This document shows positions 367 through 63,149 of a stretch of DNA of 64,000 nucleotides, piece by piece. Numbering within the stretch: position 1 is the stretch's first letter; the number at the start of each line of letters is the position of its first letter. The stretch comes from a virus, in the IMG/VR virus record IMGVR_UViG_3300032893_000735, positions 32,001-96,000 of that record. One strand, written 5' to 3'. A program made the position numbers and the translations under genes. The notes below the pieces were generated by a model. That model was not told the origin of the DNA, did not search any database, and saw nothing but the letters and a program-made list of their open reading frames with translations.

Positions 367-1003
367 ACGGTCCCTTCCGCGGCCTGATTCAAATTGGCCG
401 CCAGAAGTGCGTAGGTATAGACAGTTTGTTTTTGGTTGACCGCATCTCTGCGGACTCGCTCTCATGGTTTCCCAAGAGTTCAGGCTGTGTCTTCAGTCCA
501 TTCTGGACTGCCCGGCATGTCAGTCGTTCGGGAGCCTATTTCTAGGTTTCCTCGGCGTTGCCCTGTTCATTTATCATACTATCACGCCTGATAGTACGCG
601 TCAACAGGGTTTTCGTCGATATAGTCGGGTTTGAATTCAGCGCTTTACCACTGAATCTGGTTGCCCTGCCGAAGCGGGAGCGGACGTTGCTTTGTCATGC
701 TCAAGAACGGCGTCTGGGCTTTGAGGTTAGGGACTGCTTCGCGTTCATCAATGTGTTTTGGGTACTAGCATCTCTGCTAGTTCGCTCTGCATATTCCTAT
801 GCAGTTCAGGCCGTGTCTTCAGTCCATTTTTCGGACTGTCTGGCGTCTCGGTCGTTACGGAGCCTATTTCTAGGTTTCCTCGAAGTTGCCCGGTCTGGGC
901 CTCCTTCGATATAGCCAGATTTGAATTCACCAAGATTTTAGTGAATAGCTACCAAGTTCGGAAGCGCCCCGGATGTAACAATTGATGCAGGAGAGTAACT
1001 CAT
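367..1003 (-). CDS. Major capsid protein, N4-gp56-like (exons 1003-940, 748-650, 421-367; continues beyond the window)
   Basis: Spliced frame reads MSYSPASIVTSGALPNLVAIHYEREAVPNLKAQTPFLSMTKQRPLPLRQGNQIQFYTYALLAANLNQAAEGTV, resembling N4-gp56-family capsid N-termini; lies directly after the scaffold-like gene. Confidence 0.8.
422..649 (-). mobile_element. ORF-less group I intron 2 (228 nt)
   Basis: P1 AUUCAGU/GCUGAAU with U.G wobble; terminal G at 422; R/S-like elements AACGACUGA and GAAGACACAGCCUG; removal restores the frame (T|TC = Phe). Confidence 0.85.
576..604 (-). promoter_or_regulatory. sigma70-like promoter inside intron 2
   Basis: TTGACG-17 bp-TAGTAT with TG extended -10. Confidence 0.55.
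749..939 (-). mobile_element. ORF-less group I intron 1 (191 nt)
   Basis: P1 AUUCACU/GGUGAAU with U.G wobble; P3 UCUGGC/GCCAGA; terminal G at 749; clearly homologous to intron 2; removal restores the frame (T|AT = Tyr). Confidence 0.85.
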
Positions 1004-1021
1004 AGGTTACCTTTGTGTTGG

Positions 1022-2221
1022 TTAGTTAGAGCGCCGACTCTGGGCGCGATGGCGGAGCATTTCAGCCCACAACTTCTGGTGCTGCTCGTCCGACATGTTG
1101 TCCAGGTCCTCGACTGAGGGCGCGTTGGGAGTGTCGGGAGTCCTGACGGGTGTTACGTCATTCCTTCCGATTCCTGTAGCCGCTCTCGGGCGCACCACCT
1201 GACTCACAATCCGTGGATCGGGGCGCGGCGCAGGTGCCGGTTCGACATCTTGAACCTTTACCGGCGGAGGTGTTTTGGGTTGCCGTTTCACAGGAGCTTG
1301 CAGCATAAGTCCATCACTGTTAAGATCCTCGAAGGCTTCCTCAAGATTTTCGACGGTATAAACTCCCGCCGATACAAGCTGGTCGTAGATGCTGTACGCA
1401 TTCTCTAAACTTACTGTCTGACCTAGCTTAAACTTTGCAATCCACCGGATTAGCTGTCGGTGGTTTTGGGCACCTTGATTATCAGGGTAATAATCAGGGG
1501 TGTTAGCCAAAAATGTTTTGTTGACCATTTCCGCCGTCAGTTGGTTGCTGGCGTATTCTGCCTTCTGCGAACCCTGTTGGGCGAGTGATACTAGTTGCTC
1601 AATGGTCAATCCAGTCTTCTTCTGGAATAGCGTATCAAGAGCGAGAGCCGGGTCCGACTCCAACTGCGTCTTGATCTCAAAAACTTCGTCTGCCGTAAGC
1701 TGGCGGTTCTGTGGCGTCGGCACGTCCATTTTCTGGACAGCAGGTGCAGGAGTCTTCGCGAATTTCAACTTCGCGTTCTGCTCGCGGATCTTCTTAGTCG
1801 CGTTAGCCTGAGCCTTGAGCAAATTAGCGATCAATCCGTCCTTCGTCTTACCCCAAAATACCTGCGGACTTCCGCCAGTTGGACTGATGATCGTGCCCTT
1901 CCACTGGCCCTTTTCCTTTTCGGTAATCAACTGTGTGCCGTCTTCGAGTTCGGTTACAGTAGGCTCGTCAGGCTCAGGAGCGGGGGCAGGTTCCGGTTCC
2001 GGCTCGGGCTTATCTTCGAGGTTCGGATGATCTTCAACGACTTCTGGCTTCATGCCGGGATGCGCGTCTAGAGCCGGATCTACGAACTGCTCTTGGTTAT
2101 CCGGTTCGACCAAATCGGGGTCTCGGAGGTCTGCGTAATTCGCGCCCCAGTCTACGTTGTTTGCGAAAGGATCAACCGATCCATCAGGGTTAAGCAACCA
2201 CGGGTCTGTTACGTTTGACAT
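1022..2221 (-). CDS. Putative capsid scaffolding protein
   Basis: Acidic, Pro-rich 399 aa protein immediately upstream of the capsid gene; call is positional. Confidence 0.5.
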   Translation of the reverse strand: MSNVTDPWLLNPDGSVDPFANNVDWGANYADLRDPDLVEPDNQEQFVDPALDAHPGMKPEVVEDHPNLEDKPEPEPEPAPAPEPDEPTVTELEDGTQLITEKEKGQWKGTIISPTGGSPQVFWGKTKDGLIANLLKAQANATKKIREQNAKLKFAKTPAPAVQKMDVPTPQNRQLTADEVFEIKTQLESDPALALDTLFQKKTGLTIEQLVSLAQQGSQKAEYASNQLTAEMVNKTFLANTPDYYPDNQGAQNHRQLIRWIAKFKLGQTVSLENAYSIYDQLVSAGVYTVENLEEAFEDLNSDGLMLQAPVKRQPKTPPPVKVQDVEPAPAPRPDPRIVSQVVRPRAATGIGRNDVTPVRTPDTPNAPSVEDLDNMSDEQHQKLWAEMLRHRAQSRRSN

Positions 2222-2274
2222 TAATCATTCTCCAAATCCTAATCCAGGATTTCGGGGTTTGTCCATTTTATGGA

Positions 2275-2613
2275 TTATTTATCGTATTTAGGGGTAGGTA
2301 TTCTGTTCACCGACCAACGCCACATGATCTCGTGCTGTCGGGCGTGAGCAAACATTTCGTGAACTAAGGGGATCGGAACTCCCGTATCTCCGTAGGGCCA
2401 TTCCGATTCGTCCGCAGAAGATGTTCGAAATATATCGTCTATCTCTCCGCCTGCCGAAGAACAACCCAGACAAACATAGTGATACGTGTCTCTGTCCCAA
2501 TCTTTATTCAAGCCGAATGTTAGGGGGACTTCTGAATCCTCCGAGTTACTTTCTACATACGGCGGTTCCCAAGAACTAGGTTTTGAAAGAAGGACTTCGA
2601 AGTGACTCTGCAT
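2275..2613 (-). CDS. Hypothetical protein (C-terminus HARQHEIMW shared with 52015..52362)
   Basis: ORF track; shared CxxC...HARQHEIMW motif. Confidence 0.5.
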   Translation of the reverse strand: MQSHFEVLLSKPSSWEPPYVESNSEDSEVPLTFGLNKDWDRDTYHYVCLGCSSAGGEIDDIFRTSSADESEWPYGDTGVPIPLVHEMFAHARQHEIMWRWSVNRIPTPKYDK

Positions 2614-2956: not shown

Positions 2957-3550
2957 TACAACCCTCCGAAGATGCTAGTCAGGTCTACGTGCTTCTTTTC
3001 GGGTGGCGGGGTAGTTGAGTGAATCCGACCCTCCCGGCCTGTCCTGAGTTTGTGGGCCTGATTGATTAGCTGCTGGAGTTGCTGCGGGGTAAGATTGTCG
3101 TATTCGGAACCGGGGATGGCTTGTTGGTTGCCTACTGTAAAGTTTGGTTGCTGCTGCATATTCTCCTCTGCTGTAATCCACAGCGACGAAGTTTGTCCAT
3201 TATTTGGATGGTTATTTTGCCTCTACAGGAATCACAATGTTGCTCTCATTCGGTGGCGGGATCAAGCACCACTTCCCGCGAACAAGTCCGTCTTCTGTCA
3301 TTTCCCCAGTCGGAGGAATGTACCCGAACAACCTCCCGTCATCTGTAAGAACAACTAAAGTAGTCGTGTTCTCTCTTATCCAAGTAGAAACTTGTACTAT
3401 TTTCATTATGCACCCTTGTCCATTATCTGGATGGTGAAGTTAAGCTAGGCGGGAGGTCTTCGGGAAGGCGATAGGGCACTCTCCCTCTGACCGTTAGAAT
3501 CGATTCTTAAAACATTGTATCACACGTTTTGTAATTTGTCAAGCATTATT

Positions 3551-6500
3551 TTACAGAAGACTACCAAAACCTACTCCGCTAGTGTTCGGTGATCCAGTTA
3601 GTTCTTCTGGTTCGACTGCTCTCTTAAAGGATTCTCTCAACACGTCACGACTCGCACGGGCTATGTTCTCCTGGTCAGCCAACTCCTGCGCTTGCTGGAA
3701 CTTCTGTTGTTGCAACTGTGCTTGAGCTTGTGCCTGCGCTTGTATCTTCTGGTTCATCTGACCACCCTGCGACTGGGCCTGCTGACGGGCCAAATCTTGC
3801 GGGGTCATGTCAGTAATTATGTCGGACATACTCTTGCATTCCGCTGCTTCGAACCAGAGATGGAGAAGTTCAGTAACATCTATTTTCTTACCTTCAAGAG
3901 CCAGAGAGGATATGATTTCCGGATTGGCCAGCGTTTGCGAGAGCATCGGAAGGGCCTGATTCAGGTTTCTCCGAGTTTGCATTTTCGACCCAGCTAGGAT
4001 GTCAAACTTAACTTTCGCGTTCAGAATATCAACAAGATCCCCGCCGTTCTCAACATACTCATGTTTCAGTTCCTCGCTCATGATGAACTGGAGTTGAGAA
4101 AGTGGGAGCATCATTCGGTTCATTTCAGCCATATCATAAAGAAACGGCACAATAATCTGATTCGCCAGCTTGTCCACGCATTCGGAAATCACGTTGGACG
4201 CGCCCTGAGTCAGCGCCTGCGCCCCAGCGGAACTACGGGCCATATTGGAATGTCCGCTGGCCCCCGCGATACCCTGGGAGGTAATCGAGTTGTTCCCCGA
4301 CACTTCGCCCACCCTAGCTTGCGACTGAGTGAACAAATAACTGGCTTCTTGGACAGGCTCCCCGAACTTGAGCGGTTCCAGATCGCCCTTAGCGTCTACT
4401 TCAATAATCCGATTCGGACCAATTCGGATACTCTGCGTCGGTACCGACTTACCGCGAACCCGAAGCATCGGAGCGTTCAGCTTCAGGTTTGCGATGTTCA
4501 TAACCAGATTCGTGATGCCAGTTTGGACACGCTGTTCGGTTCCGATCGTGTTATGGGTGAGAATGCAGTCGTCAGTTACATACAGATGGTCAGGAGAATC
4601 GACCATGATGCACTGACACTGTTTCTGAGATACTAACTCTACTGACTTGATGAAGCGGGCCGGAAGATACTTTGTTCTAGGTACGTGCTTCTCCACTTTC
4701 CTAGTCAATCGGAAAGGATTAAAGGTAACACCTATAGTCAGAATAAACTGTCTGTCAGCAGGTTTTGCGAGACCTGTGTAATTCTTTTCCCAACCTTCTT
4801 TCCATCTCTTGGTGACGACAGTTACAGAACCTCCCAAAGACTGAACCAGAAATTTCACGTCATCCCGAAGTCTTTCTGAAGTTGTATAGAACTGACAGGC
4901 ACCGTTGCTCAGCGCAGAACCGTCTGTATCCATCAGACCAGCAAGAATTGCTTTTCTTTGAGCGACAGATCCGAACTTGTAGACATCGGGAATAAACTTG
5001 TAACGTGATGTGCAATTTACTCCGAGGTCACGAGTAACCCTACGGATTACATTACACTTTCCATCAAGAGAAGTAAACTTATAGTCATATTGACTTTGCG
5101 GAATTTTAGTGATCTTGGTATTTTCGGGCAGGACTTCGTTAATCCGATCTATGAGTTCTGGATCGGCAGTAGTAAATTTGGGAGTTTCGGTAGTCATACC
5201 CCCGTCGCCAAGAAGGAGCCCCATCAGGTACGGATCAAGAGGCTGTACCTTCTCTTCAAATTCTACTGGAGAAACTATAGGTATCCTGTACCGGCATTGG
5301 TGGTGGCCAGATTTTGCTTTTAAATCTCCCCAAATCTCCTGAAGTTCCAGAGTTCTAGTTTTCCACCCACGCTTCTGTTTGATTTTTGTCTTGGTTTGTA
5401 CTGTCCACAAATGTTCTTTGCAGCACTCAGTAGAAGAGCCGTCCGAAAAATGGACACGATAAACATCTTTCTCGCCTTGCGGATATATCCCAGTAACACA
5501 GTATGGCTTTCCATCAGAACCGATAACCTTGGTTCCAACTTCAACTTCTCCCATTGTAGTCCAACCATCTGGGGTCAAAATCTTAGCGTCAAGAGGCTGG
5601 GAGCGACCGAGCCCCAAACTCCAAAAACTTTGCGGAGAATCCCACCACCCAATCGAGTAAAACGGGATCTTGCCGTAGATATTCTTGTCGTTGTAAATTA
5701 CAAGTTTCTTCTGGAGGACTACGATGTACGTGTTGTTATCCCACCGTTCGAGGACTTCAAGCGGCTGCTGGAAAGGATCGATGGTCGTCTTTTCCCACGG
5801 AGAATCTGCCCGAGCGTCCCAAAGAGGATTACGCCCGCCTTCTTGCTGAGGGTTTGATTCGACAGGTTCTACAGGGGGGAGGAACAATTCAAGGAGTTTT
5901 TCACGTGACGGGATGTTGTAGCCTTCCCGTTCGCGGAGTCTGTCCAGGTCTTCCCAAGTCATGTACCGGCGGCGGATAACATACTTCGCTTTTCGAATAT
6001 CAGGAACGTCCAGACCGGGATCGACCAAGATTTCTCGCAGATTGACGATATGCTCGAATGTGGGCCTGTCTACGACCTCTTCTATTTCTTCGACTTCTAA
6101 TTCGTCATCCGTGATACTTGTAGCAGGCGCTCCGGGGATTGAACTGGGGATTACGATAGGAGGATTCTTGCGCTTGATGATTTTACGGGTACGAGTAAAT
6201 TTTTCCCATCCGGCTTGGAAGATGGCCGTGCCGAACAGCAGCATGTTCATGGTTCCCAGACGGATCTCTTCGCGGAAATTTATATCTTCTAATTGGTATC
6301 CGAGAAGTGCGGAAACGGCTCGGGCAGCTTGCGCCGAAGTTCCGCTTCGTTCTTGCGTCATAAAAGGAGGGTTCTCATAAAACAAACCGGCAAGAACTTG
6401 AGGGGTAAGACCGTTTACCGCAGTTGCAACCGTGTAGAAGTTTACAGAGGCCGCTTCCATCTGGGTTCCGGGCCAAAAATTCGGAGTCATGACCGCGTTG

Positions 6501-6697
6501 TAGAGGTCGCGGGCATTGTTCCAACCCATTAAATACTCGCGACGACGTTCTCCGCTGTCGGCCTTTTCCGCGTCCTGTAGTACAAGTTTTAGCGGAGCTG
6601 AATCAGACGAAGCCCAGGATTGATCGTTAAGAAACGAGAGCGCCTCTTCTTTTGTGAGGTCTTGGTAAGCGTTAACCTCTGGCTGATTTAGTATCAT
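3551..6697 (-). CDS. Portal protein containing an intein
   Basis: Portal-like features (LLFGTAIF, ILVDPG...KAKYVIRR, Gln-rich C-terminus); located between terminase and scaffold. Confidence 0.8.
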   Translation of the reverse strand: MILNQPEVNAYQDLTKEEALSFLNDQSWASSDSAPLKLVLQDAEKADSGERRREYLMGWNNARDLYNAVMTPNFWPGTQMEAASVNFYTVATAVNGLTPQVLAGLFYENPPFMTQERSGTSAQAARAVSALLGYQLEDINFREEIRLGTMNMLLFGTAIFQAGWEKFTRTRKIIKRKNPPIVIPSSIPGAPATSITDDELEVEEIEEVVDRPTFEHIVNLREILVDPGLDVPDIRKAKYVIRRRYMTWEDLDRLREREGYNIPSREKLLELFLPPVEPVESNPQQEGGRNPLWDARADSPWEKTTIDPFQQPLEVLERWDNNTYIVVLQKKLVIYNDKNIYGKIPFYSIGWWDSPQSFWSLGLGRSQPLDAKILTPDGWTTMGEVEVGTKVIGSDGKPYCVTGIYPQGEKDVYRVHFSDGSSTECCKEHLWTVQTKTKIKQKRGWKTRTLELQEIWGDLKAKSGHHQCRYRIPIVSPVEFEEKVQPLDPYLMGLLLGDGGMTTETPKFTTADPELIDRINEVLPENTKITKIPQSQYDYKFTSLDGKCNVIRRVTRDLGVNCTSRYKFIPDVYKFGSVAQRKAILAGLMDTDGSALSNGACQFYTTSERLRDDVKFLVQSLGGSVTVVTKRWKEGWEKNYTGLAKPADRQFILTIGVTFNPFRLTRKVEKHVPRTKYLPARFIKSVELVSQKQCQCIMVDSPDHLYVTDDCILTHNTIGTEQRVQTGITNLVMNIANLKLNAPMLRVRGKSVPTQSIRIGPNRIIEVDAKGDLEPLKFGEPVQEASYLFTQSQARVGEVSGNNSITSQGIAGASGHSNMARSSAGAQALTQGASNVISECVDKLANQIIVPFLYDMAEMNRMMLPLSQLQFIMSEELKHEYVENGGDLVDILNAKVKFDILAGSKMQTRRNLNQALPMLSQTLANPEIISSLALEGKKIDVTELLHLWFEAAECKSMSDIITDMTPQDLARQQAQSQGGQMNQKIQAQAQAQAQLQQQKFQQAQELADQENIARASRDVLRESFKRAVEPEELTGSPNTSGVGFGSLL
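4550..5602 (-). mobile_element. Intein (351 aa) with LAGLIDADG endonuclease, in the portal
   Basis: N-terminus SQPLDAKILTPDGW; endonuclease blocks LMGLLLGDG and LAGLMDTDG; C-terminus ILTHN followed by Thr. Confidence 0.92.
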
Positions 6698-7516
6698 TTA
6701 TACCCTCGTAATCCCTAGCTTTTTCATTTTAGATGAGATTGTGTTATGCGCTACACCCAATCTTCGTCCAATTTCCCGGAGAGATATATCCATTTTCAAT
6801 AGTTCTCTAAGAAGTGTTTCGTCTATTTTTCTGCGTTCCACTTTTTTAGCTTGTTCCGATTTGACTTCCCAAAACGGTCGGAAAGGAAGACCAGATTTCT
6901 TTATTCGTCTTCGAACTGTATCTGTGCTGATCCCGAAACGCTTAGATATATCTGTTGTAGTAACTCCGTTATTCCACAGAAACACAAGTTCCTCTGAACA
7001 AATATTTTTCAAGAAGTTATGAGAGCCTCGGCCTGTCATACGTTTTGACATTTTTTCGCAGGTTTCAGGGGATAACTTTTTACCTCGAACCCCCGTGTGT
7101 CTCCCCTCGGCCCACGCTATTCTGAGGCTTTCAGATGTTTTTCTTTTCGCTTCTTCAGTTCTCTTCGTCCCCAGTTTCTTTTGTCTGGCTTTTTCAATAG
7201 CTTCGGGAGTTGGTTCTCTCCGGTCCCCTCCGGAAGTCATGTTGTACCCGACTTTTGGATTCATAGAATCTAGAAGAATAATCCATATTGACTCTAAATA
7301 GTTAGCCTGCTCGGAAGTTTCGCACGTCATTACCTCTTTGATTACAAACGAGTCTATACCATACTTCCGCATAGCGTTGTACAGGTGCGCCGTGTATCCT
7401 TCGTTTCGCCTTGCTCTGCACTTGTGAAGAGTCCACCGACGTTCCAGAAATTGATTCGTCTGCCCAACGTATATCTTATCGTTTACGAGATTTGTAATCA
7501 GGTATATAGTGAACAT
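6698..7516 (-). CDS. Free-standing GIY-YIG homing endonuclease with NUMOD/HTH C-terminus
   Basis: IYLITNLVNDKIYVGQT...R motif, GYN motif, HTH-like tail. Confidence 0.88.
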   Translation of the reverse strand: MFTIYLITNLVNDKIYVGQTNQFLERRWTLHKCRARRNEGYTAHLYNAMRKYGIDSFVIKEVMTCETSEQANYLESIWIILLDSMNPKVGYNMTSGGDRREPTPEAIEKARQKKLGTKRTEEAKRKTSESLRIAWAEGRHTGVRGKKLSPETCEKMSKRMTGRGSHNFLKNICSEELVFLWNNGVTTTDISKRFGISTDTVRRRIKKSGLPFRPFWEVKSEQAKKVERRKIDETLLRELLKMDISLREIGRRLGVAHNTISSKMKKLGITRV

Positions 7517-7784
7517 TACTTCGCCCCCGAAAGTTCCACGCAGGTGTTTCGGGATTTTTCAAAGTAGTCCGCAGACATCTTTTTAGCGGCGCGATTCTGA
7601 AGTTTGTTGGGTACGGAGGCGTCAATTACCATCTGGATTTCTTTTTCCAGATTGTCGAGGATGGAAACAAAAAGAGGCTGGATAGGTCCTTGATTTACGT
7701 TCATTATATTATTCCTTGAATGAATTTTTTGTCGGTTGATTAAAGTGTTACCGACACCACTTGTTGTCCGAAAAATGGACGGGA

Positions 7785-8114: not shown

Positions 8115-8691
8115 ATTATCCTCTTAATCCGGGCACTCGGCCCGATGTTGGTTTGTTGAAGTTCAGAGCAGACTTGCCCATAGGTTTCATGAAACTAGGT
8201 TGTCCATTTTCTGGACGAGGGGCAGGTTCTTGCCAGCCATTAGGCCGATCTACACGAAGATGTGGCTGGAAAGTGATACCGAAAAGTTCGTATGTTCCGT
8301 TGTTTGGGTTGTCAGAAATTTGTGGCATTTTTCCTTGCAACTTCTGACCCGGAGGAGGCATCCATCTGCTTGGTTGACAGGCGTCTGTGGTATGCTCCGC
8401 GATTACCTTGCCGTCGTCATCTATGATTTTGACTTGGAGTTTCACTAGTATACTACCGTCATCTTTTCTATATTGTGCCCGATGATATTCCAGCACGTTT
8501 TCGGGAGCCCTTTTTCGTCGTGGTCTTCATATCTTTGTTTCCCGTAGTTGGATAGTATTCTTGTAGTTGTTTCGTAAAGAATATCTTCTGCCCTACGTTT
8601 TGCGGACATCGCTTTGATCAATTCCGAGAACTCCTCGTCCGTAATCCTCTGGACTCCGAGTCTAGGAACGTCTTCATAAGGTGTGTACATT

Positions 8692-11162: not shown

Positions 11163-11247
11163 ATTTCGTCCATTTTCTGGATTGCTTCGTCCTGTTCTCT
11201 CAGTTGATCTGGCTAGGCCGGGTATCGTCGTGCTCACAGCGTCAGCG

Positions 11248-15592: not shown

Positions 15593-15622
15593 TGGTTATC
15601 CTTTGTCCAGAAAATGGACGGG

Positions 15623-17558: not shown

Positions 17559-17586
17559 TTATCCTTCAATCTGTCCACAAAATGGA

Positions 17587-19549: not shown

Positions 19550-19554
19550 GAACT

Positions 19555-44138: not shown

Positions 44139-44169
44139 GTTTCATCCATTTTATGGAAAAGGAGGCATC

Positions 44170-50081: not shown

Positions 50082-50291
50082 TTGGTGAGGAGAATCCAGA
50101 TAATGGACAAGTGGATTAGCGTAGAGGAAGAACTGCCGAAATTCGTAGGCAAAAGTGCAGGAGACGGTCGAGACTTCGCCTACATCGGTTGGGACGGCGT
50201 AGACATCGCACCCCTTAACGAATATTCAGGGTATTGGCCGCATCTTGTGACCCACTGGATGCCTCTTCCGGAACCGCCGAAGGAGAAGTGA
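50082..50291 (+). CDS. DUF551-like protein
   Basis: WISVEEELP...VTHWMPLPEPP. Confidence 0.7.
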   Translation: MVRRIQIMDKWISVEEELPKFVGKSAGDGRDFAYIGWDGVDIAPLNEYSGYWPHLVTHWMPLPEPPKEK

Positions 50292-53522: not shown

Positions 53523-54117
53523 TCATCACCACAAAGTCAGGAAGCAAGTACCGTATTGACCTGGATGCAAAAACCTGGTCGAGTGTCCATTTTTCGGACG
53601 AATCTGGCTACCTGCGAACCGCAGGCGGGGACTATGACTATATCCGATTTGAGATCGGAGCACCCCTGGAGATGCTATGCCCGCCGATCACCGAAGGGTC
53701 AGCGGCACGGTACATTGAAACCAGCGATATTGTTTCTGTGGAGGACGAATGACCCAGTATAGTACGCCCGATAATACCCCCGTTGAACGCATTTTGCGTA
53801 ATAAAATACGCTGTTTGCGTTGTAACACTGAGATCGAAAGCAAGCACAGACATGACTTCAAATACTGCCCGTGCGGAGCCGCAGCGGTGGACGGAGGACT
53901 GGACTACCTGAAGAGGTGCGGGAACATGGAGGACATTGTGGAACTGTCCGAGTTCACAACTGAACCGGAGCCGCCACGCCGGAAAAGGACAGAGGCGGAG
54001 ACTGAACAGCTACTTTTAGCCCTGTTTGGGAAGTCCAAATAATGGATTTCGGCCTGCACCACTGGAAAATGATGTTTTTCGACCGTGGATAATGTTTTTC
54101 GACGGAAAGGAGGATAT

Positions 54118-55344: not shown

Positions 55345-55352
55345 TCCAGAAA

Positions 55353-57197
55353 ATGGACAAAGCACTTACAGTTGGGTCGCTATTCGCGGGTATAGGCGGC
55401 TTCGACCTTGGATTTGAGAGAGCGGGATTTGAGGTAAATTGGTGCGTCGAGATCGATCCGTTCTGCCGAAAGGTCTTAGCCAAGCATTTTCCGAACGCCA
55501 AACGGTATGAAGACGTTAGGGAAGTTGGAAAACACAATTTGGAACCAGTGGACGTGATTTGTGCTGGGTTCCCTTGCTTTCCGTCAGGGAGCCTAGTTCT
55601 TTCTTCTAAGGGGTATCAACCTATTGAAAACATACGGGTAGGCGATCTTGTGCTTACCCATAAAGGTAGGTGGAGAAAGGTCACAGGAACCGGTGGTAGA
55701 AATAATGCGCCACTTGTTACTCTTAAAGGACAAGGACATTGCGGATTAGAGGCTACTCCCGACCATCCATTTTGGAGCAGAAAAACTAAAGGATATTATC
55801 CTTCTGTCAACGGTAAAAGGAAGAATTTACGTGTATTTGACGGAGAAGCCTCGTGGACTGATGCGAAGGATATGTCGGGTTTGAGATGGGCTTGTCCTAC
55901 GTCGGTGGAACCTCTTCCCGTTCCTGTTATAGAGCCTCTGAACAACCGTTGCAAGACTCCCCCGGTTCAGGATGAAAAATTTTGGTGGATTGTCGGGCGG
56001 TGGTTAGGAGATGGTTGGTGTCAGCAGACTCAGAGGCCGGATCGCCCTGAAGGGGAATTGTGGGGTAAATTTGTAATATGCTGCGACCATGTTGAAGCTG
56101 ATGAGTTGGAGTTGAAAATATCAGAAGTATTTGGTATTTCTCCTAGAAAAGAAGTATGCCGAACTGCTACCAAATTTTACATAGGAGATAAGTCAACTTG
56201 TACGTGGTTTGAATCTAACTTCGGAAAAGGAGCCTCCGAAAAAACATTACCGGCTTGGGTGTACGGGATGCCTGAAAGATTTCGAACTGCCCTTCTTGAA
56301 GGTTACAAGAGTGCCGATGGGTCTACAAATAAGCCTGGAAATCATCGTTTTACGACGGTAAGCAAGTCTCTTGCAACCTCGATTCGTTTATTATCTGAAA
56401 CTTTGGGTTTTAGTAGTTCTTTGCACCACTATGAAATTCCCCCGACGACGGTTATTGAGGGGCGAGTTGTAAACCAAAAACCTCAGTATCAAGTAGTTAT
56501 GAATCAAAATCCTCGTAGCAACGGGATGCGAGATGAAAAACATAACTGGTATAAGGTACGAAGTTCTAAATCCTGTGGAAAATTTACTGATGTATTTAAT
56601 ATTGAGGTAGAAGAAGACAATACCTACGTGGTAGAAAACATAGTAGTACACAACTGTCAAGATATTTCCGTAGCTGGAAAAGGTGTTGGAATTTCAGGAG
56701 AACGAAGTGGACTCTTCTTTGAAGCGGCAAGGATCATTAGCGAGATACGACCGCGATACGCAGTCTTGGAAAATGTACACGCCCTCCTTGTTCGGGGAAT
56801 GGACCGAGTTCTCGGGACGCTTTCCGAAATCGGGTATGATGCGGAGTGGCATACTATTCGAGCTTCGGAATTCGGGTTGCCGCAAGAGAGAGAGAGAATC
56901 TGGATTGTTGCCTACCCTTCCGAAGAGCGAAACGAGAGATTCTTCGAAAGCCTCTATTCTAGCGAAGTTGGACAGAGGTGGTCGGGTGGCGAGACGGATT
57001 TGCAGTCGATCATCGATCTTGCGCTCGTCGGATCAAATAGTTTCCCTAAACCCTTGCTTTGCGGAGTGGATGACCGGCCTACCGGTTGGGTGGACAGAGT
57101 TGGATCTTGTGGAAACGCAGTAGTACCGCAGATTCCAGAGTGGATAGCAAAACGGATACTTGAAGTTGAAGGCGTCCAGAAAATGGACAGGAGCTAA
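55353..57197 (+). CDS. C5 DNA cytosine methyltransferase containing an intein
   Basis: LFAGIGG, GFP|CQD after splicing, ENV, QERER, GNAVVP. Confidence 0.9.
   Translation: MDKALTVGSLFAGIGGFDLGFERAGFEVNWCVEIDPFCRKVLAKHFPNAKRYEDVREVGKHNLEPVDVICAGFPCFPSGSLVLSSKGYQPIENIRVGDLVLTHKGRWRKVTGTGGRNNAPLVTLKGQGHCGLEATPDHPFWSRKTKGYYPSVNGKRKNLRVFDGEASWTDAKDMSGLRWACPTSVEPLPVPVIEPLNNRCKTPPVQDEKFWWIVGRWLGDGWCQQTQRPDRPEGELWGKFVICCDHVEADELELKISEVFGISPRKEVCRTATKFYIGDKSTCTWFESNFGKGASEKTLPAWVYGMPERFRTALLEGYKSADGSTNKPGNHRFTTVSKSLATSIRLLSETLGFSSSLHHYEIPPTTVIEGRVVNQKPQYQVVMNQNPRSNGMRDEKHNWYKVRSSKSCGKFTDVFNIEVEEDNTYVVENIVVHNCQDISVAGKGVGISGERSGLFFEAARIISEIRPRYAVLENVHALLVRGMDRVLGTLSEIGYDAEWHTIRASEFGLPQERERIWIVAYPSEERNERFFESLYSSEVGQRWSGGETDLQSIIDLALVGSNSFPKPLLCGVDDRPTGWVDRVGSCGNAVVPQIPEWIAKRILEVEGVQKMDRS
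55575..56654 (+). mobile_element. Intein (360 aa) with LAGLIDADG endonuclease, inserted before the catalytic Cys
   Basis: CFPSGSLV...TPDHPF...VGRWLGDG...VVHN|C. Confidence 0.92.
56683..57123 (+). CDS. Nested alternative-frame ORF, putative methyltransferase beta subunit (motif IX)
   Basis: Ends LNPCFAEWMTGLPVGWT. Confidence 0.6.
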   Translation: MLEFQENEVDSSLKRQGSLARYDRDTQSWKMYTPSLFGEWTEFSGRFPKSGMMRSGILFELRNSGCRKRERESGLLPTLPKSETRDSSKASILAKLDRGGRVARRICSRSSILRSSDQIVSLNPCFAEWMTGLPVGWTELDLVETQ

Positions 57198-57198: not shown

Positions 57199-57639
57199 AT
57201 GGAAACTTCCACAAAATGGGATCTACGATTTTTGAATCTAGCCAAAGAGGTTGCCTCATGGAGTAAAGATCCTCCGACTCAGGTGGGTGCGATTATCACC
57301 AGAGGAAAGAAGGTAGTCTCTTTGGGTTTCAACGGGTTTCCTTCTGGGATTGTGGATGATTCTAGGTTGGATGACCGGCCGACGCGACTCGGAATGACGA
57401 TCCACGCTGAGCCCAACGCAATTCTCCAAGCCAAACAAGACCTGTCTGGATGTACGATTTACGTTTGGCCGTTTATGCCGTGTTCCGACTGCGCTCTTTT
57501 GGTGGTACAATCTGGAATCAAGCGAGTTGTTGCCCCTAGATCCGACAATCCGAGGTGGGCAGACAGCTTCACGCTGTCCGAAGAAATTTTCAACGAAGCA
57601 GGTGTATTTGTCCAGAAAATGGACAAGGAGATTTTATGA
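57199..57639 (+). CDS. dCMP deaminase
   Basis: GFNGFP, HAEPNA, PCSDCA. Confidence 0.88.
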   Translation: METSTKWDLRFLNLAKEVASWSKDPPTQVGAIITRGKKVVSLGFNGFPSGIVDDSRLDDRPTRLGMTIHAEPNAILQAKQDLSGCTIYVWPFMPCSDCALLVVQSGIKRVVAPRSDNPRWADSFTLSEEIFNEAGVFVQKMDKEIL

Positions 57640-58622
57640 AACACATTCCGTTTCCAGATATTCAGCAATTCCGAAACACCGTCAAGACCGTCCGAGAACG
57701 GGCGGAGTACAGTGGGGTTCCGCTCCCTACTCTGACATTTGTTGGGTCTGTTGAACTGCACGGAACAAACGCTTCTGTTGTCTTTCCAGAAAATGGACAG
57801 ATTGTCGTGCAGAGTCGGACACGAATCATTACCCCAGAGCACGATAACGCTGGGTTCGCTAAATGGGTTACAGAGAACGAGGAATGGTTCGTTACTCTTC
57901 GTCGTGTTTTGCGGGAAGAATTCAAACTAGCAAACGGATTCGTTGTCTACGGAGAATGGTGCGGCCAAGGAATCCAGAAGGGTGTGGCTATTTCTCAGGT
58001 CTCCAAGAGATTTGTAGTATTTTCAATCGCAGTTCTCAAAGGGGAAGATCGTGAATGGGTCCATCCTCTCTGCGTCAGGTCTTTGGTGTCCCCCATGTTT
58101 TACTGCATTTACGACTACCCGACTTGGACTTTGGATATTGATTTTAACAAGCCCGAAGAATCTCAAAACCGTCTGGTAGAATTGACTCAGGCGGTTGAGA
58201 ATGAATGCCCAGTAGGGAAATCGTTTGGAGTTTCTGGAGTCGGTGAGGAGATTGTTTGGTGGCCGCTTCCCGCCCTTGACTTCAATACCAGAGATTTGGC
58301 TTTCAAGGTAAAAGGAGAAAAGCACTCCGAGTCGAAAGTTAAGACTCTGGCGGCGGTTGATGTAGAAAAACTCAACTCCTTGAACGAACTTGTTGATACT
58401 ATCTTGACAGAGCACCGTCTAGAAAAGAAAATCGAATCTCTTCTTGAGCAAGGAGGAAGTCTAGACATCAAGCAAACTGGCGCTTTTCTGAAGTTAGTCG
58501 GCCAGGATGTCTACAAGGAAGAAGCGGATACCATTTCCGAGGCAGGCTTCAAGGATAGCGAAGTCATGGGCGCGGTACAAAAGAAAGCAAAGAAATTCTG
58601 GATGGAAAAATTGTCCAGATAG
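57636..58622 (+). CDS. RNA ligase-like protein (Rnl2 family) with altered catalytic motifs
   Basis: ELHGTNA (motif I), QSR, YGEWCG.GIQK, GEEIVW, FKVKGEKHS. Confidence 0.75.
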   Translation: MKHIPFPDIQQFRNTVKTVRERAEYSGVPLPTLTFVGSVELHGTNASVVFPENGQIVVQSRTRIITPEHDNAGFAKWVTENEEWFVTLRRVLREEFKLANGFVVYGEWCGQGIQKGVAISQVSKRFVVFSIAVLKGEDREWVHPLCVRSLVSPMFYCIYDYPTWTLDIDFNKPEESQNRLVELTQAVENECPVGKSFGVSGVGEEIVWWPLPALDFNTRDLAFKVKGEKHSESKVKTLAAVDVEKLNSLNELVDTILTEHRLEKKIESLLEQGGSLDIKQTGAFLKLVGQDVYKEEADTISEAGFKDSEVMGAVQKKAKKFWMEKLSR

Positions 58623-59243
58623 TGGACAAGGAGGAACAATGAAATACCAGAACGTGAAGAATGCTATGGAAGAAGCCGAGCGGTTTATCCGGAAATCGGA
58701 CGCCCTGCTCAAACTGACGGACGAAGCTGTGGGGAACGATCACCTTGACGGCGACTACGTTGTTCAAGGGCACGCATCGGCCTCTGTCCGCCGGTCGTCC
58801 TTGGAGCTTTCCCATCTTTTGTCTCAGATGCGCAAGTCAGATTGGGAGGAGTAATGAGGACTACCACGCGGCAAGACACAGAACTTACGGATCAGATTCT
58901 AGATTGGGTGGTTTCGTCGGTAGATATGGAAGACCTTTACGGTAGAGAATCCATTCTGGAATATGCTTCCGAAAATTTCGAATTGGAGGACTTATTTACC
59001 GAGAAGGAACTTTCCAGTTGGGCTTATGACAACGGATTTAAGAAGTTTGAATAGGAGGTACGGTGGAAACTCCTGAGCAATATGCAATGCAGATCCTAGA
59101 CCGCCTTGGATTTTTGTTCGGGCACGACTACGTTCCTGGAAACGCAATCGACAAGGCGGTTAAATTCACTATCGAAGTCTTTGAAGATAAAGATTTCGAG
59201 GATCTTAACGGGTATAACCAAAGTGATTCGGGGTGGACATAAC

Positions 59244-61115
59244 GTGGAAGATTTGGATGCGTTGAAGAGTAATCCAGGGGTAATCAGGGTATACTCACGA
59301 TACGTAAAGTTGAAGAAGGCGGGGAACAAATACGTAGGATGCTGCCCGCTTCCTGAGCACAATGACGGCAGTCCGAGTTTCACAGTGTTCCCAGACATGC
59401 GGGCTAGTTGCTTCGGGTGCGGGGCTAATCTGAACGTATTCCAACTTGTCCAGAAAATGGACGGATGCGATTTTAAGACTGCGGTAGAAAAGGTGAAGGA
59501 AGAAGTGGGCGAGACGAGCTGGGAATCCGCGAAGCAGAAGGTAGAAAGCACGTTTAAGGCCGTCGCGGAGCCGAAGACCTACAAGACCATCTCCTTAGAG
59601 CAGTGGAAGAAGATGGAGGATAATCTCGCGCAATCAAAATCCGCCCAAGACTTTCTCCTGAACGAGCGCGGGATTACATTTGAAACCGCCCAGAGGTTGC
59701 GACTTGGGTTTGTCCAGAATCTAGGAGCTTTGGCGGGGGCAGATGGGGCAGACATTGCTAACCAAGGCTGGATTGCTCTTCCTTCGATTGAGGACGGCAA
59801 AGTCGTGTCCGTGAAATACAGGTCCATTATTCGGAAAAAGCCGGGAGGGTTTAGCCGCCAACCCGGTATGGCTACGGCTTTGTTCAACGCGGAAACCATT
59901 GATCCGTTTGAACCAGTAATGGTGGTGGAGGGGGAGTTCGATTCGTGCGCGCTAGAACAAGCAGGATTCAAAGCTGTTTCTGTCCCAAATGCAGGGGCGA
60001 AATTAACCCCGGAGCAGAAGGACAAGCTGATGCAAGCATCGATGGTGATCCTGGCTGGGGATACCGACGCTGCTGGCGTGACTTCGATGGACCGGCTCTG
60101 GAAGGAACTCGGAGAACGGGTTTACAAACTGACGTGGCCGGAGGGGATGAAGGACGCGAACCAGACGCTTCTTGAGAACTGCGGTCGGGACGTTTCAAAA
60201 TTCAAGAATCTTGTAGATGAGTTGACTAGAAAGGCGAAAAGCCAGCCTATGCCCTCCGTTTATTCACTGCAAGAAGCCATGATGAATGGGGAAGAGGGAA
60301 CGCTGTCCGAGAGGACGGATCGTCTTCGGATGCCGTGGTCTTGCCTTGATGACTCTTTGATTATTCTACCGGGGCATGTCTTCGGGTTCGGCAGCTCCAA
60401 TACTGGCATGGGCAAGACACTTTGGACAGTTCAGGTTAGCTTGTATAACGCTCGTAAGTTCGGGAGAACCGTGCTGAATTTTCAAGCTGAGATGGACCCG
60501 TCTGAGATCGGTGATTTGGTCGCCGCACAGATGCTCAGGGTTGACCGGAACACGTTGACTAAGTCGGACAGGGTTAAGGCGGCGCAAATCCTAGGGTCCG
60601 AAGGTGTTAATTACTATATTGGCCGGGATTCTAACCTTACGGAACTGAACGAGGTTCTTGACCTTTTGGAAGCAGCCATCAAGAGGCTGTCCCCCGAAAT
60701 CGTGATCCTGGACCACTTCCATCATTTTTCGGCTGGAACTTCGAACGAAGTGAACGCACAATCCGCTGCGATGACCAGAATCAAGGCGCTAGCAGACGCC
60801 TACAAGGTAATTTTTATCAACGTAGGACAACCCCGCAAAAGTAACCAGCAATCTCGTGGACGCAAAATTACAGTGGATGATTTTAAAGGCTCAGGCGCGT
60901 GGAAAGACGCCGCTAACTCTGTAATGATTATCCACCGTGACCTAAACAAAGATGACGCTCCGACATCTAAGGGGCCTTACGAGGACCGTACTCTGGTCCA
61001 GGTTCTTAAGGGAAGATCGTTGGGTAGAGGATCATCCTCTGCCGTTCTTACTTGTTTCGGAGAGTTCGGCTGCTTCGAAGAAATTGATTCCGTCCACGAA
61101 GATCCTGAAGAATAA
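59244..61115 (+). CDS. Primase-helicase (CHC2 zinc finger, TOPRIM, DnaB-like)
   Basis: CPLPEH..PSF..CFGCG, VEGEFD, D.D.AG, KDAN, GMGKT, ILDHFH. Confidence 0.88.
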   Translation: MEDLDALKSNPGVIRVYSRYVKLKKAGNKYVGCCPLPEHNDGSPSFTVFPDMRASCFGCGANLNVFQLVQKMDGCDFKTAVEKVKEEVGETSWESAKQKVESTFKAVAEPKTYKTISLEQWKKMEDNLAQSKSAQDFLLNERGITFETAQRLRLGFVQNLGALAGADGADIANQGWIALPSIEDGKVVSVKYRSIIRKKPGGFSRQPGMATALFNAETIDPFEPVMVVEGEFDSCALEQAGFKAVSVPNAGAKLTPEQKDKLMQASMVILAGDTDAAGVTSMDRLWKELGERVYKLTWPEGMKDANQTLLENCGRDVSKFKNLVDELTRKAKSQPMPSVYSLQEAMMNGEEGTLSERTDRLRMPWSCLDDSLIILPGHVFGFGSSNTGMGKTLWTVQVSLYNARKFGRTVLNFQAEMDPSEIGDLVAAQMLRVDRNTLTKSDRVKAAQILGSEGVNYYIGRDSNLTELNEVLDLLEAAIKRLSPEIVILDHFHHFSAGTSNEVNAQSAAMTRIKALADAYKVIFINVGQPRKSNQQSRGRKITVDDFKGSGAWKDAANSVMIIHRDLNKDDAPTSKGPYEDRTLVQVLKGRSLGRGSSSAVLTCFGEFGCFEEIDSVHEDPEE

Positions 61116-61163
61116 TGTTGCAGTTTAACCTTTGGTATGCTACACTCAAAAGAAAGAGGAGAA

Positions 61164-61934
61164 ATGAGAGAACTTAACCCGCATGACCTTCTTTGGGCGG
61201 TTCGATTGCTGCCTCAAAGGGTTCGAAATCAAATGATTACCTACGGCTCCCGTCTGGTTCTTGGCGGTGGATTCGTTAGGTCAACCGTATCTGGCGAGAA
61301 GCCGAATGACATTGACCTTTTTACCCAGACGCCCGAAGACGCGAATTTGTTTGCTTCAGAACTGGCGAAGGAGGCGAAGAAGGGAGATCCTTACAAAACA
61401 GGGAATGCATTATCCGTTAAGCTGTCGCCCCGGCACTTTGTTCAATATGTCCACCGTTGGTCTTTCCCGACACCAGCGCATCTGATCGAGTCTTTTGATT
61501 TCACGATTGCGTGTTCTGCGTTGTGGTTTGACACCGAGTCCAGAAAATGGACAAGTTTGATCGACGATGAGTTCTATTCGGATTTGGCCGCGAAAAGGCT
61601 AGTGTATCGTTCTCCGCTTCGTAATGAGGACGCTGGCGGTTCGATGCTCCGTGTTCTCAAGTTCTACCAGCGTGGGTTCCGAATCCCGATTGATTCGCTC
61701 GGGGCCGTTATTGCCCGTCTAGTAGATGGAGTAGACTTGAACGGAGTAGCAACGGAGAGCTATAAAGATGGTCGTGTACTTGGTGGTACAAACATAGGAG
61801 ATACCACTGAGAAACGGTGGGCAAGTATCATCACCGGCCTGCTTCACGAAGTAGATCCACAGATCGACCCCGACCACCTATCTCATTTGCCGAGGTCGGT
61901 ACAAGAAGTAAAAGACGAGGAGGAAGTTCAGTGA
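61164..61934 (+). CDS. Nucleotidyltransferase-like protein
   Basis: GGGFVR..PNDIDLF...FDFT...RVLKFYQRGF. Confidence 0.7.
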   Translation: MRELNPHDLLWAVRLLPQRVRNQMITYGSRLVLGGGFVRSTVSGEKPNDIDLFTQTPEDANLFASELAKEAKKGDPYKTGNALSVKLSPRHFVQYVHRWSFPTPAHLIESFDFTIACSALWFDTESRKWTSLIDDEFYSDLAAKRLVYRSPLRNEDAGGSMLRVLKFYQRGFRIPIDSLGAVIARLVDGVDLNGVATESYKDGRVLGGTNIGDTTEKRWASIITGLLHEVDPQIDPDHLSHLPRSVQEVKDEEEVQ

Positions 61935-62078
61935 AGCCAGTAAGATGTCCCAACTGCGGTAAAGGCTGGGACCGATTCGGAGACGGTGATTGCGACTACT
62001 GCACCCGTAAAGAATTCCGTCCAGAAAATGGGCAGGATGACGACTTGACTATGTGGCCAGCTTGGCAACGGAGGACCG

Positions 62079-63149
62079 ATGAAAATCCTAGCAAGTGAAC
62101 TCAAGAAGACTCTTAAGGTACTCTCTCCGATCAAAACGGAGACCTACCAGATCGGAGAGAACGGTATCTCCGCTCAGGACCAGTCAGAGGCTCTAGTTAT
62201 CCTGGAATCTCCGTTGTCGCAACTTGGCGGTCCTTTCAACTTCTCCGGCAAGAAGTTCTCGCAGGTCGTCGCCCGAATGTCCGGGGAGATTGACTTGACG
62301 GTAGAAGGTAACAAGATGACCATCAGGTCCTCCAAGGCAAAGATCGAACTTGAGATCCAACAGATCAAGAAGCAGAACATCCCGGAGACTCCAGACAAGT
62401 TCATCAAGTTCTCAGAAGAGGAGTTTAAGACAGCGCTGGCTTTGTCCGCTTCGTTCGCCTCGACCAAGAAGAGCGAAGACTTCGGTGGGAAGGTTTTGAT
62501 CCAGAGTCTTCCAATTGGAATTGAGGATGAACACCCGTCTGGGTATCGAATCGTAGGTACGGACAGCTTCGTCCTGACAGTAGCCAGTCGTGACCAGTCG
62601 GTTCCGTTTGAGTTCAAGTATTCGTTGAACCTTCTCGCTGCCTCGATTGTCCAGTTTCTGGACGGAGACATTGAGATCGGAGAAACGATTAGCCATCTGG
62701 TCCTGAAGGCGAAGGGTGCGACAGTTTACGCAGCCAAGTCAACCAAGGTCTATCCTCCGTTCGACCGGACTTTGGCAGCTACTAGCCCCGTAACTATCTC
62801 ATTCCAGACTCATAAGTGGATGTCTTGCTTGAAGACGGTAGAACCCCTGATAGACGAATCGGTTGACGACGGAAATATCTGTTTACATTTCTTGGATGGT
62901 GTGGTACAATTCAAGACAATAGGAGTTGGATCAACGGCTTCGGACGAGACAGAGTATGAGCAGACTCTGCCCGATCCAGTTTTTGATCCGAAGGAATTTG
63001 AGATGCGGATTAAGGCTGAGCGACTGGCTAGTTTTCTTTCCAAGGCTGGGGAGTTCTCCACGTTGGGGGTAGCCTCTAGCAAGCAGCCATACCGATTTGA
63101 ATCAGACGGGATTATTTCCATTATCCTGCCGCCAGCGGAGAAGCGATGA
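62079..63149 (+). CDS. DNA sliding clamp (beta-like)
   Basis: 356 aa; IVGTDSFVL and YPPFDR motifs; a clamp loader is also encoded. Confidence 0.7.
   Translation: MKILASELKKTLKVLSPIKTETYQIGENGISAQDQSEALVILESPLSQLGGPFNFSGKKFSQVVARMSGEIDLTVEGNKMTIRSSKAKIELEIQQIKKQNIPETPDKFIKFSEEEFKTALALSASFASTKKSEDFGGKVLIQSLPIGIEDEHPSGYRIVGTDSFVLTVASRDQSVPFEFKYSLNLLAASIVQFLDGDIEIGETISHLVLKAKGATVYAAKSTKVYPPFDRTLAATSPVTISFQTHKWMSCLKTVEPLIDESVDDGNICLHFLDGVVQFKTIGVGSTASDETEYEQTLPDPVFDPKEFEMRIKAERLASFLSKAGEFSTLGVASSKQPYRFESDGIISIILPPAEKR

Follow-up and report, generated by a model that had tools for sequence, protein, structure and literature searches.

Dispersed 15-bp dyad sites in an uncultivated wetland phage, candidate docking sites for a phage protein

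The window analyzed here is a 64,000 nt stretch of an uncultivated wetland phage (IMG/VR record IMGVR_UViG_3300032893_000735, bases 32,001–96,000 of 105,825), and it carries many copies of a 15-bp word with inverted-repeat arms, GTCC(A/G)GAAAATGGAC. The sites are a real, selected signal and are highly significant. The 15-mer is a recurring, information-rich instance of a kind of array already known from phages, and not a new category. As a candidate explanation, held tentatively, the array is taken to be a set of docking sites on double-stranded DNA for a probably dimeric phage protein, operator- or stoperator-like in character.

A dispersed and selected 15-bp word

The window contains 11 exact copies of the 15-mer, GTCCAGAAAATGGAC, and 100 shuffles contained none, while the looser pattern GTCCR-N5-YGGAC is present 36 times against 0.30 expected. 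A position weight matrix (PWM) was trained iteratively on the complete record (a single phage genome, labeled G000, GC 0.497). Its scores were bimodal, with 90 sites at or above the cut-off of 14 compared to 0.2 per mononucleotide shuffle, a density of 0.85 per kb. Fifty-seven sites over the cut-off lie in the window (Table 1, window numbering). An earlier reading of this DNA from its letters alone (the sequence-only reading) had claimed more than 50 copies, and all 49 of the coordinates it listed are among the 57; the additional eight begin at 26619, 27420, 28342, 44144, 45285, 46135, 48462 and 59822. It had also begun the array at 496; a copy does lie there, at 497–509, as a short-spacer variant that scores under the cut-off (Table 1, first row). 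Across the 90 sites, positions 2–4 and 7–15 are nearly invariant, and the variable positions are 1 (G70 A13 T7) and 5 (A63 G27). Several variants carry an upstream TAA or TAG in the site centre, and much of the A-to-T change seen at position 8 stems from this placement.

Gene calling gave 158 genes in G000, those of the left arm on the minus strand and those of the right arm on the plus strand, with 13% of the genome non-coding. About 43 of the 90 sites lie wholly within a gene, and the other 47 do not. That the word is a selected signal, as proposed earlier, was borne out by codon shuffling: permuting synonymous codons reduced the ~43 in-gene sites to ~8 (total 90 to 54.6), and permuting codon order reduced them to ~0 (total 90 to 37.8), the 47 junction sites being untouched in each case. 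The recurrent peptides VQKMD, PENGQ, VHFSD and PFFG were again seen as products of in-gene copies. The sites are also spaced more evenly than random in G000, with five gaps of less than 200 bp where 13.9 are expected, and in three of the four genomes tested the coefficient of variation (CV) of spacing was 0.61–0.85 compared to 0.95–0.98 for random placement (P 0.002–0.06); in the fourth (G004) spacing was no different from random (CV 0.98). Within 45 nt on each side of the G000 sites no position holds more than 0.35 bit of information, in agreement with the earlier remark that target-site duplications and shared flanks are absent.

The sites show a real preference for lying directly 5' of the ribosome-binding site (RBS). 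In G000, 15 of the 90 sites end 10–13 nt before a start codon, compared to ~0.6% of random positions, and the Shine-Dalgarno (SD) sequence of these RBS-abutting sites begins 0–2 nt past the site. Another four to five sites supply the ATG start codon itself (distance −6), a use that the sequence-only reading had already noticed. Over five genomes, 59 of 241 sites are start-associated, the site lying 5' of the SD, and the adjacency persists in either orientation where a spacer of 37–235 nt is available. The same association is found in the relative G312 (eight sites at −6 and six at 10–16) and for the different palindrome of G313 (8 of 21; see later).

Orientation was set by the strand of the A-rich core relative to transcription. 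The sites are used both ways, with 155 sense and 86 antisense (36%) over five genomes; the ratio is the same in every position class (33:18 for RBS-abutting sites, 91:52 deep in genes), and antisense sites have PWM scores as good as those of sense sites. The background ratio of GAAAA to TTTTC on sense strands is ~3:1 (257:96 and similar), and as the bias of the sites is weaker than this, it gives no evidence for a directional signal. The earlier impression that the core follows transcription on the right arm holds weakly for the counts (27:12, compared to 9:8 on the left arm), but these are below the background strand composition.

Related phages, candidate hosts and the origin of copies

The stretch is contained in three wetland DNA metagenomes, of which one may be its source, none of the listed runs being RNA. 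GenBank phages gave no DNA-level match to G000 (megablast, 20 kb query), and a literature search for the motif sequence returned no matching paper. The exact 15-mer is present in several copies in at least 11 IMG/VR contigs. Five relatives were compared, four of them whole contigs of 33–109 kb and the other a 92-kb relative found by a search with the N-domain of an initiator-like protein. They share 22–73% protein identity with G000 over structural and replication genes, range in GC from 0.395 to 0.552, and carry 19–51 sites each (0.29–0.82 per kb), so the word is conserved across a divergent family, as the earlier reading had suggested should be examined. The preferred form in G001 and G002 is GTCCGGAAAATGGAC, and that of G312 is TTCCAGATAATGGAA, in which both outer bases have changed jointly (TTCCA...TGGAA). 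The conserved site extends symmetrically in G001, G002 and G004, with T before and A after (AT on both sides in G001). Other dispersed palindromes are found in more distant relatives with the same initiator N-domain: TTCAC-N3-GTGAA in G309 (19 exact copies in 94 kb, most of them remote from gene starts) and GTGCAG-NN-CTGCAC in G313 (17–20 copies in 51 kb, mostly directly 5' of the SD). One relative, 98% complete, is without any such dispersed palindrome. Switching of palindromes between lineages would fit a fast-evolving pair of protein and site.

When proteins encoded by genes with a copy were aligned to their orthologues, the five to six motif codons matched ordinary residues, almost always without gaps (e.g., VRKGD opposite VQKMD in polymerases, and LKGDWN opposite LSGNWT in the clamp loader). 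Conservation at the orthologous position is seen for a few copies, e.g., the primase VQKMD in three genomes, and not for most. From these alignments, the motif is written by point substitution under selection and turns over between relatives.

A conserved 1,166-aa structural protein matches two short contigs binned in Acidobacteria metagenome-assembled genomes (MAGs), a weak indication that the host may belong to this phylum. The loose pattern occurred 8 and 17 times in two such MAGs, compared to 12 and 10 for the reversed control, and the exact motif 15 times in 301 genomes of the phylum against 9 for the control (the set includes one unpublished genome, G057, which contributes a single match). 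The word is, then, not enriched in these candidate hosts, where the sequence-only reading had asked whether an equally abundant host repeat exists. No prophage copy of the phage was found in the genomes searched.

Candidate readings of the array

On the favored reading, which seems to us the best available and still somewhat short of probable, each site would be read on double-stranded DNA by a sequence-specific, DNA-bending protein, most likely phage-encoded, that contacts two 4–5-bp half-sites with centres ~10 bp apart flanking an A-tract. Selection would maintain about one site per 1–3 kb, fairly evenly along both arms, and would place the sites at least cost, at stop/start junctions, RNA hairpin apexes, protein linkers and tolerant codons. 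We infer that a protein reads the sites on DNA, that it is a dimer, and that binding would most likely serve genome-wide control of gene expression. This might take the form of silencing, or of a transcription road-block at gene entries in a temperate phage, like stoperators and phiC31-type repeats; timed shut-off is an alternative form. The arms are kept by sequence and not by pairing, since the non-Watson-Crick arm variants are G·U-compatible 73 times on the sense strand and 70 times on the antisense strand; A at position 1, the most frequent variant, produces an A·C mismatch in sense RNA. The reading also draws support from the enrichment and selection of the sites, their origin by substitution, their recurrence in relatives of differing GC, their use in both orientations, the symmetrical extension in G001, G002 and G004 and the joint outer-base change in G312, the even spacing in three of the four genomes tested, and the tyrosine integrases of G000, G002 and G004.

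A precedent comes from an unrelated IMG/VR phage, 3300023207_000265 (G006; 41 kb, GC 0.63), which has no protein similarity to G000. Here the same core is found six times in tandem as AAGTCCAGAAAATGGACTT, ~22–24 bp apart and with an AT-rich stretch after, and nowhere else in the contig. These iterons (locus 3360–3520) lie inside a gene matching Phage_rep_O (PF04492, E 2e-9) and several 'replication initiation O-like' PHROGs. This is the layout of the lambda origin, where O dimers bind 19-bp inverted-repeat iterons (PMC7466680), which argues that the 15-mer is a protein-binding DNA site at least in G006. By analogy, a dimeric winged-helix-type protein reading the 15-mer on DNA is plausible.

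Several observations weigh against docking sites of this kind. The dyad is imperfect, the left arm and position 5 being far more variable than the right arm. A DNA road-block alone gives no explanation for the exact distance of 10–12 nt to the start codon where the spacer is roomy. Genes with an upstream site are not shared between orthologues in relatives (P 0.17), which makes gene-specific regulation unlikely, and a gene-specific regulon was rejected for this reason. In G000 the core variant is weakly linked to orientation (AG vs GA, P 0.018), and this hints at some strand-specific constraint. Phage_integrase is present in G000, G002 and G004, and these integrases sit within the replication operon, so that a temperate lifestyle is not thereby shown. 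A signal for a dimeric protein, as the sequence-only reading had it, is still the best reading, but family searches recovered no protein that would bind it: the phage family has no Phage_rep_O (PF04492), ParB_N, or conserved HTH_3 or HTH_17 protein, and profile comparison (hhalign) found no G000 protein resembling the O N-domain. Many of the small proteins belong to no known family.

Small proteins restricted to the motif clade were short-listed by comparative filtering. Of these, just one has a recognizable helix-turn-helix (HTH), an extracytoplasmic function (ECF)-like sigma factor encoded outside the window (genome 98279–98797, plus strand; Sigma70_r4_2 at 29 bits, weak r2), followed by an overlapping conserved ORF of 108 aa. 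As reader it was not adopted because a bipartite promoter is a misfit with a 15-bp dyad used both ways right at the RBS. Three GIY-YIG/HTH proteins were rejected, being homing endonucleases of the ordinary type that some members of the clade lack. Nor is the initiator N-domain supported as reader; it lacks likeness to the O N-domain and occurs at ~50% identity in phages without the motif. A 79-aa early protein conserved in the clade is predicted to fold into five strands plus one basic helix (pLDDT 76), and no PDB structure matched it at E < 0.001; a conserved 118-aa protein looks all-beta.

The main rival, an unlikely one on present evidence, is that the selected unit is an mRNA hairpin of a 5-bp stem and GAAAA pentaloop, either read by an RNA-binding protein or acting structurally to couple, insulate or process cistrons at the RBS. 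The 15-mer folds at −5.5 kcal/mol, and its architecture and loop are like those of lambda nutR boxB. The boxB element of lambdoid nut sites is a 15-nt hairpin, also with a 5-bp stem and a GAAAA pentaloop, found about twice per genome beside boxA and downstream of early promoters, in one orientation, and read by the N protein; the present word differs in having 90 copies and in its large antisense share, and the phage is not known to have an N-like protein. It is the fixed distance to the RBS that keeps the RNA reading alive, seen in the start-associated sites of G000 (10–13 nt before the start, or supplying the ATG) and again in G312 and, with another palindrome, in G313. Hairpins that contain the word do occur. 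Copy 27733 forms the stem apex of a bona fide Twister-P5 ribozyme (27721–27778, plus strand; Rfam RF02684, 57.3 bits compared to a gathering score of 37.6) between two early genes, capping an 8-bp stem where the family consensus has a GAAA loop. At least nine early-gene junctions in G001 are long hairpins tipped by the motif (−16 to −22.5 kcal/mol by prediction; Table 1, last row), in the order upstream TAA, anti-SD TCCTGCC, covarying stem (gat/atc, cat/atg, gaat/attc, cta/tag, aaac/gttt), motif apex, sequestered GGAGG and ATG. By their predicted folds, these modules look like obligatory translational-coupling hairpins.

The wider set of sites speaks against selection for the RNA fold. The antisense sites include RBS-abutting ones and G001 modules, in which the word occurs in both orientations; the loop is then UUUUC, and conservation is equal. 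The sense strand shows no preference for G·U over A·C, the arms are conserved in sequence with no compensatory change within a genome, and half of the sites are located well within genes or lie between tRNA genes. Flanking sequence in G000 does not extend the stem (70 of 90 without an extra pair, like controls). The hairpins are read as hosts of a DNA word whose palindrome fits their apexes at no cost, and not as the object of selection themselves.

It is improbable, to a greater degree than for the hairpin, that the sites serve replication or recombination, as dispersed iteron-like loading sites for an initiator-like protein and primase-helicase, as many weak origins or lagging-strand priming marks, or as Chi-like signals for RecT, exonuclease and UvrD. 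The identical sequence is an origin iteron in G006, the spacing of ~1.2 kb is fairly even, and usage of the A-rich strand roughly tracks the two divergent arms. The family's initiator-like gene (phrog_1408; relatives named YdaU/DUF1376) holds a copy in a linker, where close homologues of the protein keep a PxNGQ peptide. However, the family shows neither a tandem array nor an AT-rich unwinding element, PF04492 is absent from it, and the initiator N-domain does not predict the motif. Within the initiator gene the copy is placed anywhere between 374 and 1276 nt, as site density alone predicts. Chi-like signals are strand-polar, which the 15-mer sites are not, and adjacency to the RBS is left unexplained.

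A more speculative idea, to which we give low credence, is that the array is a lineage-specific 'self' code, a phage protein recognizing the word about every kilobase and so marking its own chromosome. Such a mark may protect from a phage nuclease, or may restrict the loading of replication, condensation or packaging machinery to phage DNA. Sister lineages would have switched words so that co-infecting relatives do not cross-react, and a palindromic word could hide in the apexes of RNA hairpins and in coupling hairpins without impairing expression.

Very unlikely, in our view, are crossover joints for gene-cassette exchange between relatives, resembling promoter early stem-loop (PeSL) elements (precedent in PMC2839356) or integron/dif modules and perhaps catalyzed by the tyrosine recombinases of the replication module. 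Genes with an RBS site are enriched among those without homologues in relatives (69/548 vs 19/263, P 0.02), and tyrosine recombinases are present. On the other hand, sites occupy junctions to the same extent next to conserved and non-conserved genes (14%, 15%, 20% and 20%, no significant contrast), and joints for gene swaps were rejected because they are not enriched at conserved/variable boundaries. Around half of the sites lie inside essential genes and arose by substitution, and exchange between sites of mixed orientation would cause inversion or loss of essential DNA. Known tyrosine-recombinase core sites have longer arms than the 5 bp present here.

A promoter for host sigma-70 or a phage polymerase was rejected: the flanks hold no information, both orientations are used, sigma-70-like sites show no excess (15 vs 15.1 expected), and 10–12 nt to the ATG leaves no room for a −10 element and leader. 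A mobile miniature element, or a host repetitive extragenic palindromic (REP)-like repeat common to the phage, is barely credible despite the high copy number and a 15-nt length that would preserve reading frame on insertion, because in-gene copies align with orthologues as substitutions and not as 5-codon insertions (the sequence-only reading had likewise argued against a mobile element), flanks are not shared, and a host repeat is rejected for the candidate hosts, the host assignment itself being weak.

Comparison with known arrays and other genome features

The sequence-only reading had not recognized a described system. This has to be qualified, since dispersed, lineage-specific dyad repeats have been described in Cluster O mycobacteriophages, and related arrays in Clusters A and K. 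The closest published case is the repeat of Corndog and its Cluster O relatives, a 17-bp dyad of unknown function, TGTTCGG-NNN-CCGAACA (PMC4351075). Both are short dyads with an A/T-rich centre (TTT/AAA in Cluster O), present in more than 30 copies genome-wide, with intergenic, near-start and in-gene copies, no meaningful orientation, and conservation across the cluster. The present array differs in sequence and host group, in its higher density, and in having half of its copies written into coding sequence by substitution. Its centre lacks symmetry and is likewise conserved, about one copy in four abuts an RBS, and the array persists over much deeper divergence, with sister lineages that switched palindromes.

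Cluster A stoperators, bound by the L5 gp71-type immunity repressor, are asymmetric, monomer-bound and point one way (PMC9283540, PMC6550527). They resemble the present sites in numbering tens of copies of a 13–15-bp site at similar density, mostly at gene junctions, in integrase-bearing phages, and in having a lineage-specific sequence that co-varies with the phage; the sites described here differ in their GTCC/GGAC dyad arms over 15 bp and in the use of both orientations (155:86). In Cluster K, the start-associated sequence (SAS) and extended SAS (ESAS) are tied to translation starts and absent from the host genome (PMC3203893); as of 2025 their function had yet to be tested (PMC12699233). 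The ESAS form inverted repeats directly before the RBS, with a subcluster-specific consensus and departures that do not support RNA pairing, while SAS contain the SD, are in one orientation, lie virtually all 3–7 bp before starts, and are confined to the non-structural half (PMC3203893). In contrast to SAS, the present site excludes the SD, occurs on both arms and in genes, and is start-associated in ~25–30% of copies. Lambda origin iterons (PMC7466680) share a 15–19-bp inverted repeat with an A-rich centre, but the copies here are dispersed and single, without an adjacent unwinding element or PF04492 protein. T4-type PeSL cassettes (~100 bp, with a sigma-70 promoter and stem-loop) differ in that the present sites show neither flank conservation nor a sigma-70-like excess, and host REP or miniature inverted-repeat elements differ in that no insertions are seen here.

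Dispersed, lineage-specific short palindromes recur in phage genomes (Cluster O, Cluster K ESAS). The present family is unusually favorable for finding a function of the dyad type: its density is the highest yet seen, selection clearly writes the word into essential genes, the word is constant across relatives differing by 16 points of GC, sister words and a wordless relative provide a comparative screen for the reader protein, and the unrelated G006 shows the same word at a putative initiator binding site. Identification of the reader would account for a trait that recurs in phage genome architecture, and the reader could give a compact, orthogonal protein/operator pair.

Protein functions in G000 were assigned by PHROG and Pfam searches, in which most structural and early proteins had no match. 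Those recognized include terminase, a family-A-type DNA polymerase, sliding clamp, clamp loader, primase-helicase, single-stranded DNA-binding protein (SSB), a RecT-like protein, exonuclease, RNA ligase, NAMPT, a split UvrD helicase, an intein-bearing C5 methyltransferase, a tyrosine integrase, the ECF-like sigma factor, and HNH and GIY-YIG homing endonucleases. The C5 cytosine DNA methyltransferase (55353–57197, plus strand) has an intein between the methylase halves (matches to Hint, LAGLIDADG and intein splicing). Two ORFs on the plus strand encode the N-terminal (48887–49906) and C-terminal (50291–51136) parts of the UvrD-type helicase. Two tiny ORFs and motif copy 50094 lie between them, and the arrangement could reflect an intron, a homing insertion or a genuine split. 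The GIY-YIG homing endonucleases are three paralogues, each with two to three tandem HTH modules, encoded at 6698–7516 of the window (minus strand) and at 997–2211 (plus) and 6208–7134 (minus) of the genome.

The left arm carries 22 tRNA genes at its inner end (19468–23117, minus strand), and two motif copies lie at tRNA gene boundaries. Just upstream of the integrase, the gene at 32655–33818 (plus strand) encodes a DUF7666 protein and contains a tandem repeat (33018–33600) of 22 copies of a 27-bp unit that includes CTGGTGGCCGA on the minus strand and specifies a His-rich repeat of 9 aa. The two ends of G000 (100–290 and 105515–105705) share ~190 bp at 82% identity, which is not an exact terminal repeat, and the shared stretch includes two motif copies and a strong hairpin resembling an intrinsic terminator.

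Table 1. Copies of the 15-bp word in the window (window coordinates), with example junction modules of the relative G001 in the last row (G001 genome positions).
Feature	Position	Strand	Evidence
Variant copy, 3-nt spacer (GTCCA-TTC-TGGAC)	497-509		sequence read; below PWM threshold
Intergenic, A-rich strand is sense	822-836	-	PWM 24.8
Exact, in gene 1022-2221(-), codes VQKMD	1724-1738	-	exact match, PWM
Stop/start junction, 39 nt to next start	2261-2275	-	PWM
Junction, 35 nt to next start	3195-3209	-	PWM
RBS-abutting, 11 nt to start	3418-3432	-	PWM
In terminase-like gene 3551-6697(-), antisense core (VHFSD)	5441-5455	+	PWM
Junction, antisense core	7766-7780	+	PWM
Exact, in gene 8116-8496(-)	8202-8216	-	exact match, PWM
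In gene 8692-10779(-)	9398-9412	-	PWM
Intergenic	11168-11182	-	PWM
In gene 11248-13953(-), antisense core (PFFG)	13707-13721	+	PWM
Exact, in gene 13966-14685(-)	14539-14553	-	exact match, PWM
Exact, RBS-abutting, 12 nt to minus-strand gene start, antisense core	15605-15619	+	exact match, PWM
In gene 15833-16927(-), antisense core	16864-16878	+	PWM
Junction, 14 nt to start, antisense core	17573-17587	+	PWM
5 nt past last tRNA gene of array	19449-19463	+	PWM
Between tRNA-His and tRNA-Thr genes	21528-21542	-	PWM
Weaker, divergent region between arms	26619-26633	+	PWM 19.2
5 nt past a stop codon	27262-27276	+	PWM
Weaker, intergenic, antisense core	27420-27434	-	PWM
Apex of 8-bp stem, Twister-P5 ribozyme	27733-27747	+	Rfam 57.3 bits, alignment
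Weak, junction	28342-28356	-	PWM 15.7
Junction, antisense core	28766-28780	-	PWM
Junction, 23 nt to start	29174-29188	+	PWM
Exact, intergenic	31583-31597	+	exact match, PWM
Weaker, over a gene end	31814-31828	+	PWM
Upstream TAA in loop, ATG is next start (distance -6)	32646-32660	+	PWM
In integrase gene 33815-34906(+)	34190-34204	+	PWM
Contains integrase stop codon, abuts next RBS (11 nt)	34897-34911	+	PWM
Supplies start codon, SD just upstream	35877-35891	+	PWM
RBS-abutting (11 nt)	36468-36482	+	PWM
In DNA polymerase gene 36698-38896(+), antisense core	37448-37462	-	PWM
Over a stop codon	39531-39545	+	PWM
In clamp-loader gene; orthologous position in G001 also has site	40509-40523	+	alignment
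Exact: stop, 2 nt, site, SD, ATG (11 nt)	40955-40969	+	exact match
Exact: stop, 2 nt, site, SD, ATG (12 nt)	43265-43279	+	exact match
Weaker, RBS-abutting (11 nt), antisense core	44144-44158	-	PWM
Weak, over a start codon	45285-45299	-	PWM 15.0
In RecT-like gene	46135-46149	-	PWM
RBS-abutting (10 nt), antisense core	47332-47346	-	PWM
Weaker, in SSB gene	48462-48476	-	PWM
Supplies start codon (-6)	50094-50108	+	PWM
In gene 3' end, abuts next RBS (11 nt)	51681-51695	+	PWM
In exonuclease gene (IQKMD)	53124-53138	+	alignment
In small gene, antisense core	53585-53599	-	PWM
70 nt before initiator-like gene	54033-54047	+	PWM
In linker of initiator-like gene 54118-55344 (NPENGQ)	54623-54637	+	PWM, alignment
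Over stop, supplies C5-methyltransferase gene start	55344-55358	+	PWM
Exact, in gene 3' end, abuts next RBS (10 nt)	57174-57188	+	exact match
Exact, in gene 3' end, abuts next RBS (11 nt)	57610-57624	+	exact match
In RNA-ligase gene	57784-57798	+	PWM
Contains TAG stop, abuts next RBS (11 nt)	58613-58627	+	PWM
Exact, in primase-helicase gene (VQKMD); orthologous position kept in G001, nearly in G002	59448-59462	+	alignment
Weaker, in primase-helicase gene	59822-59836	-	PWM
Exact, in gene 61233-61934	61538-61552	+	exact match, PWM
In small gene, 45 nt before clamp gene start	62019-62033	+	PWM
In sliding-clamp gene, antisense core	62649-62663	-	PWM
G001 junction modules, examples	47346, 48259, 49598, 49916, 51208, 52195, 52388, 59593, 64492

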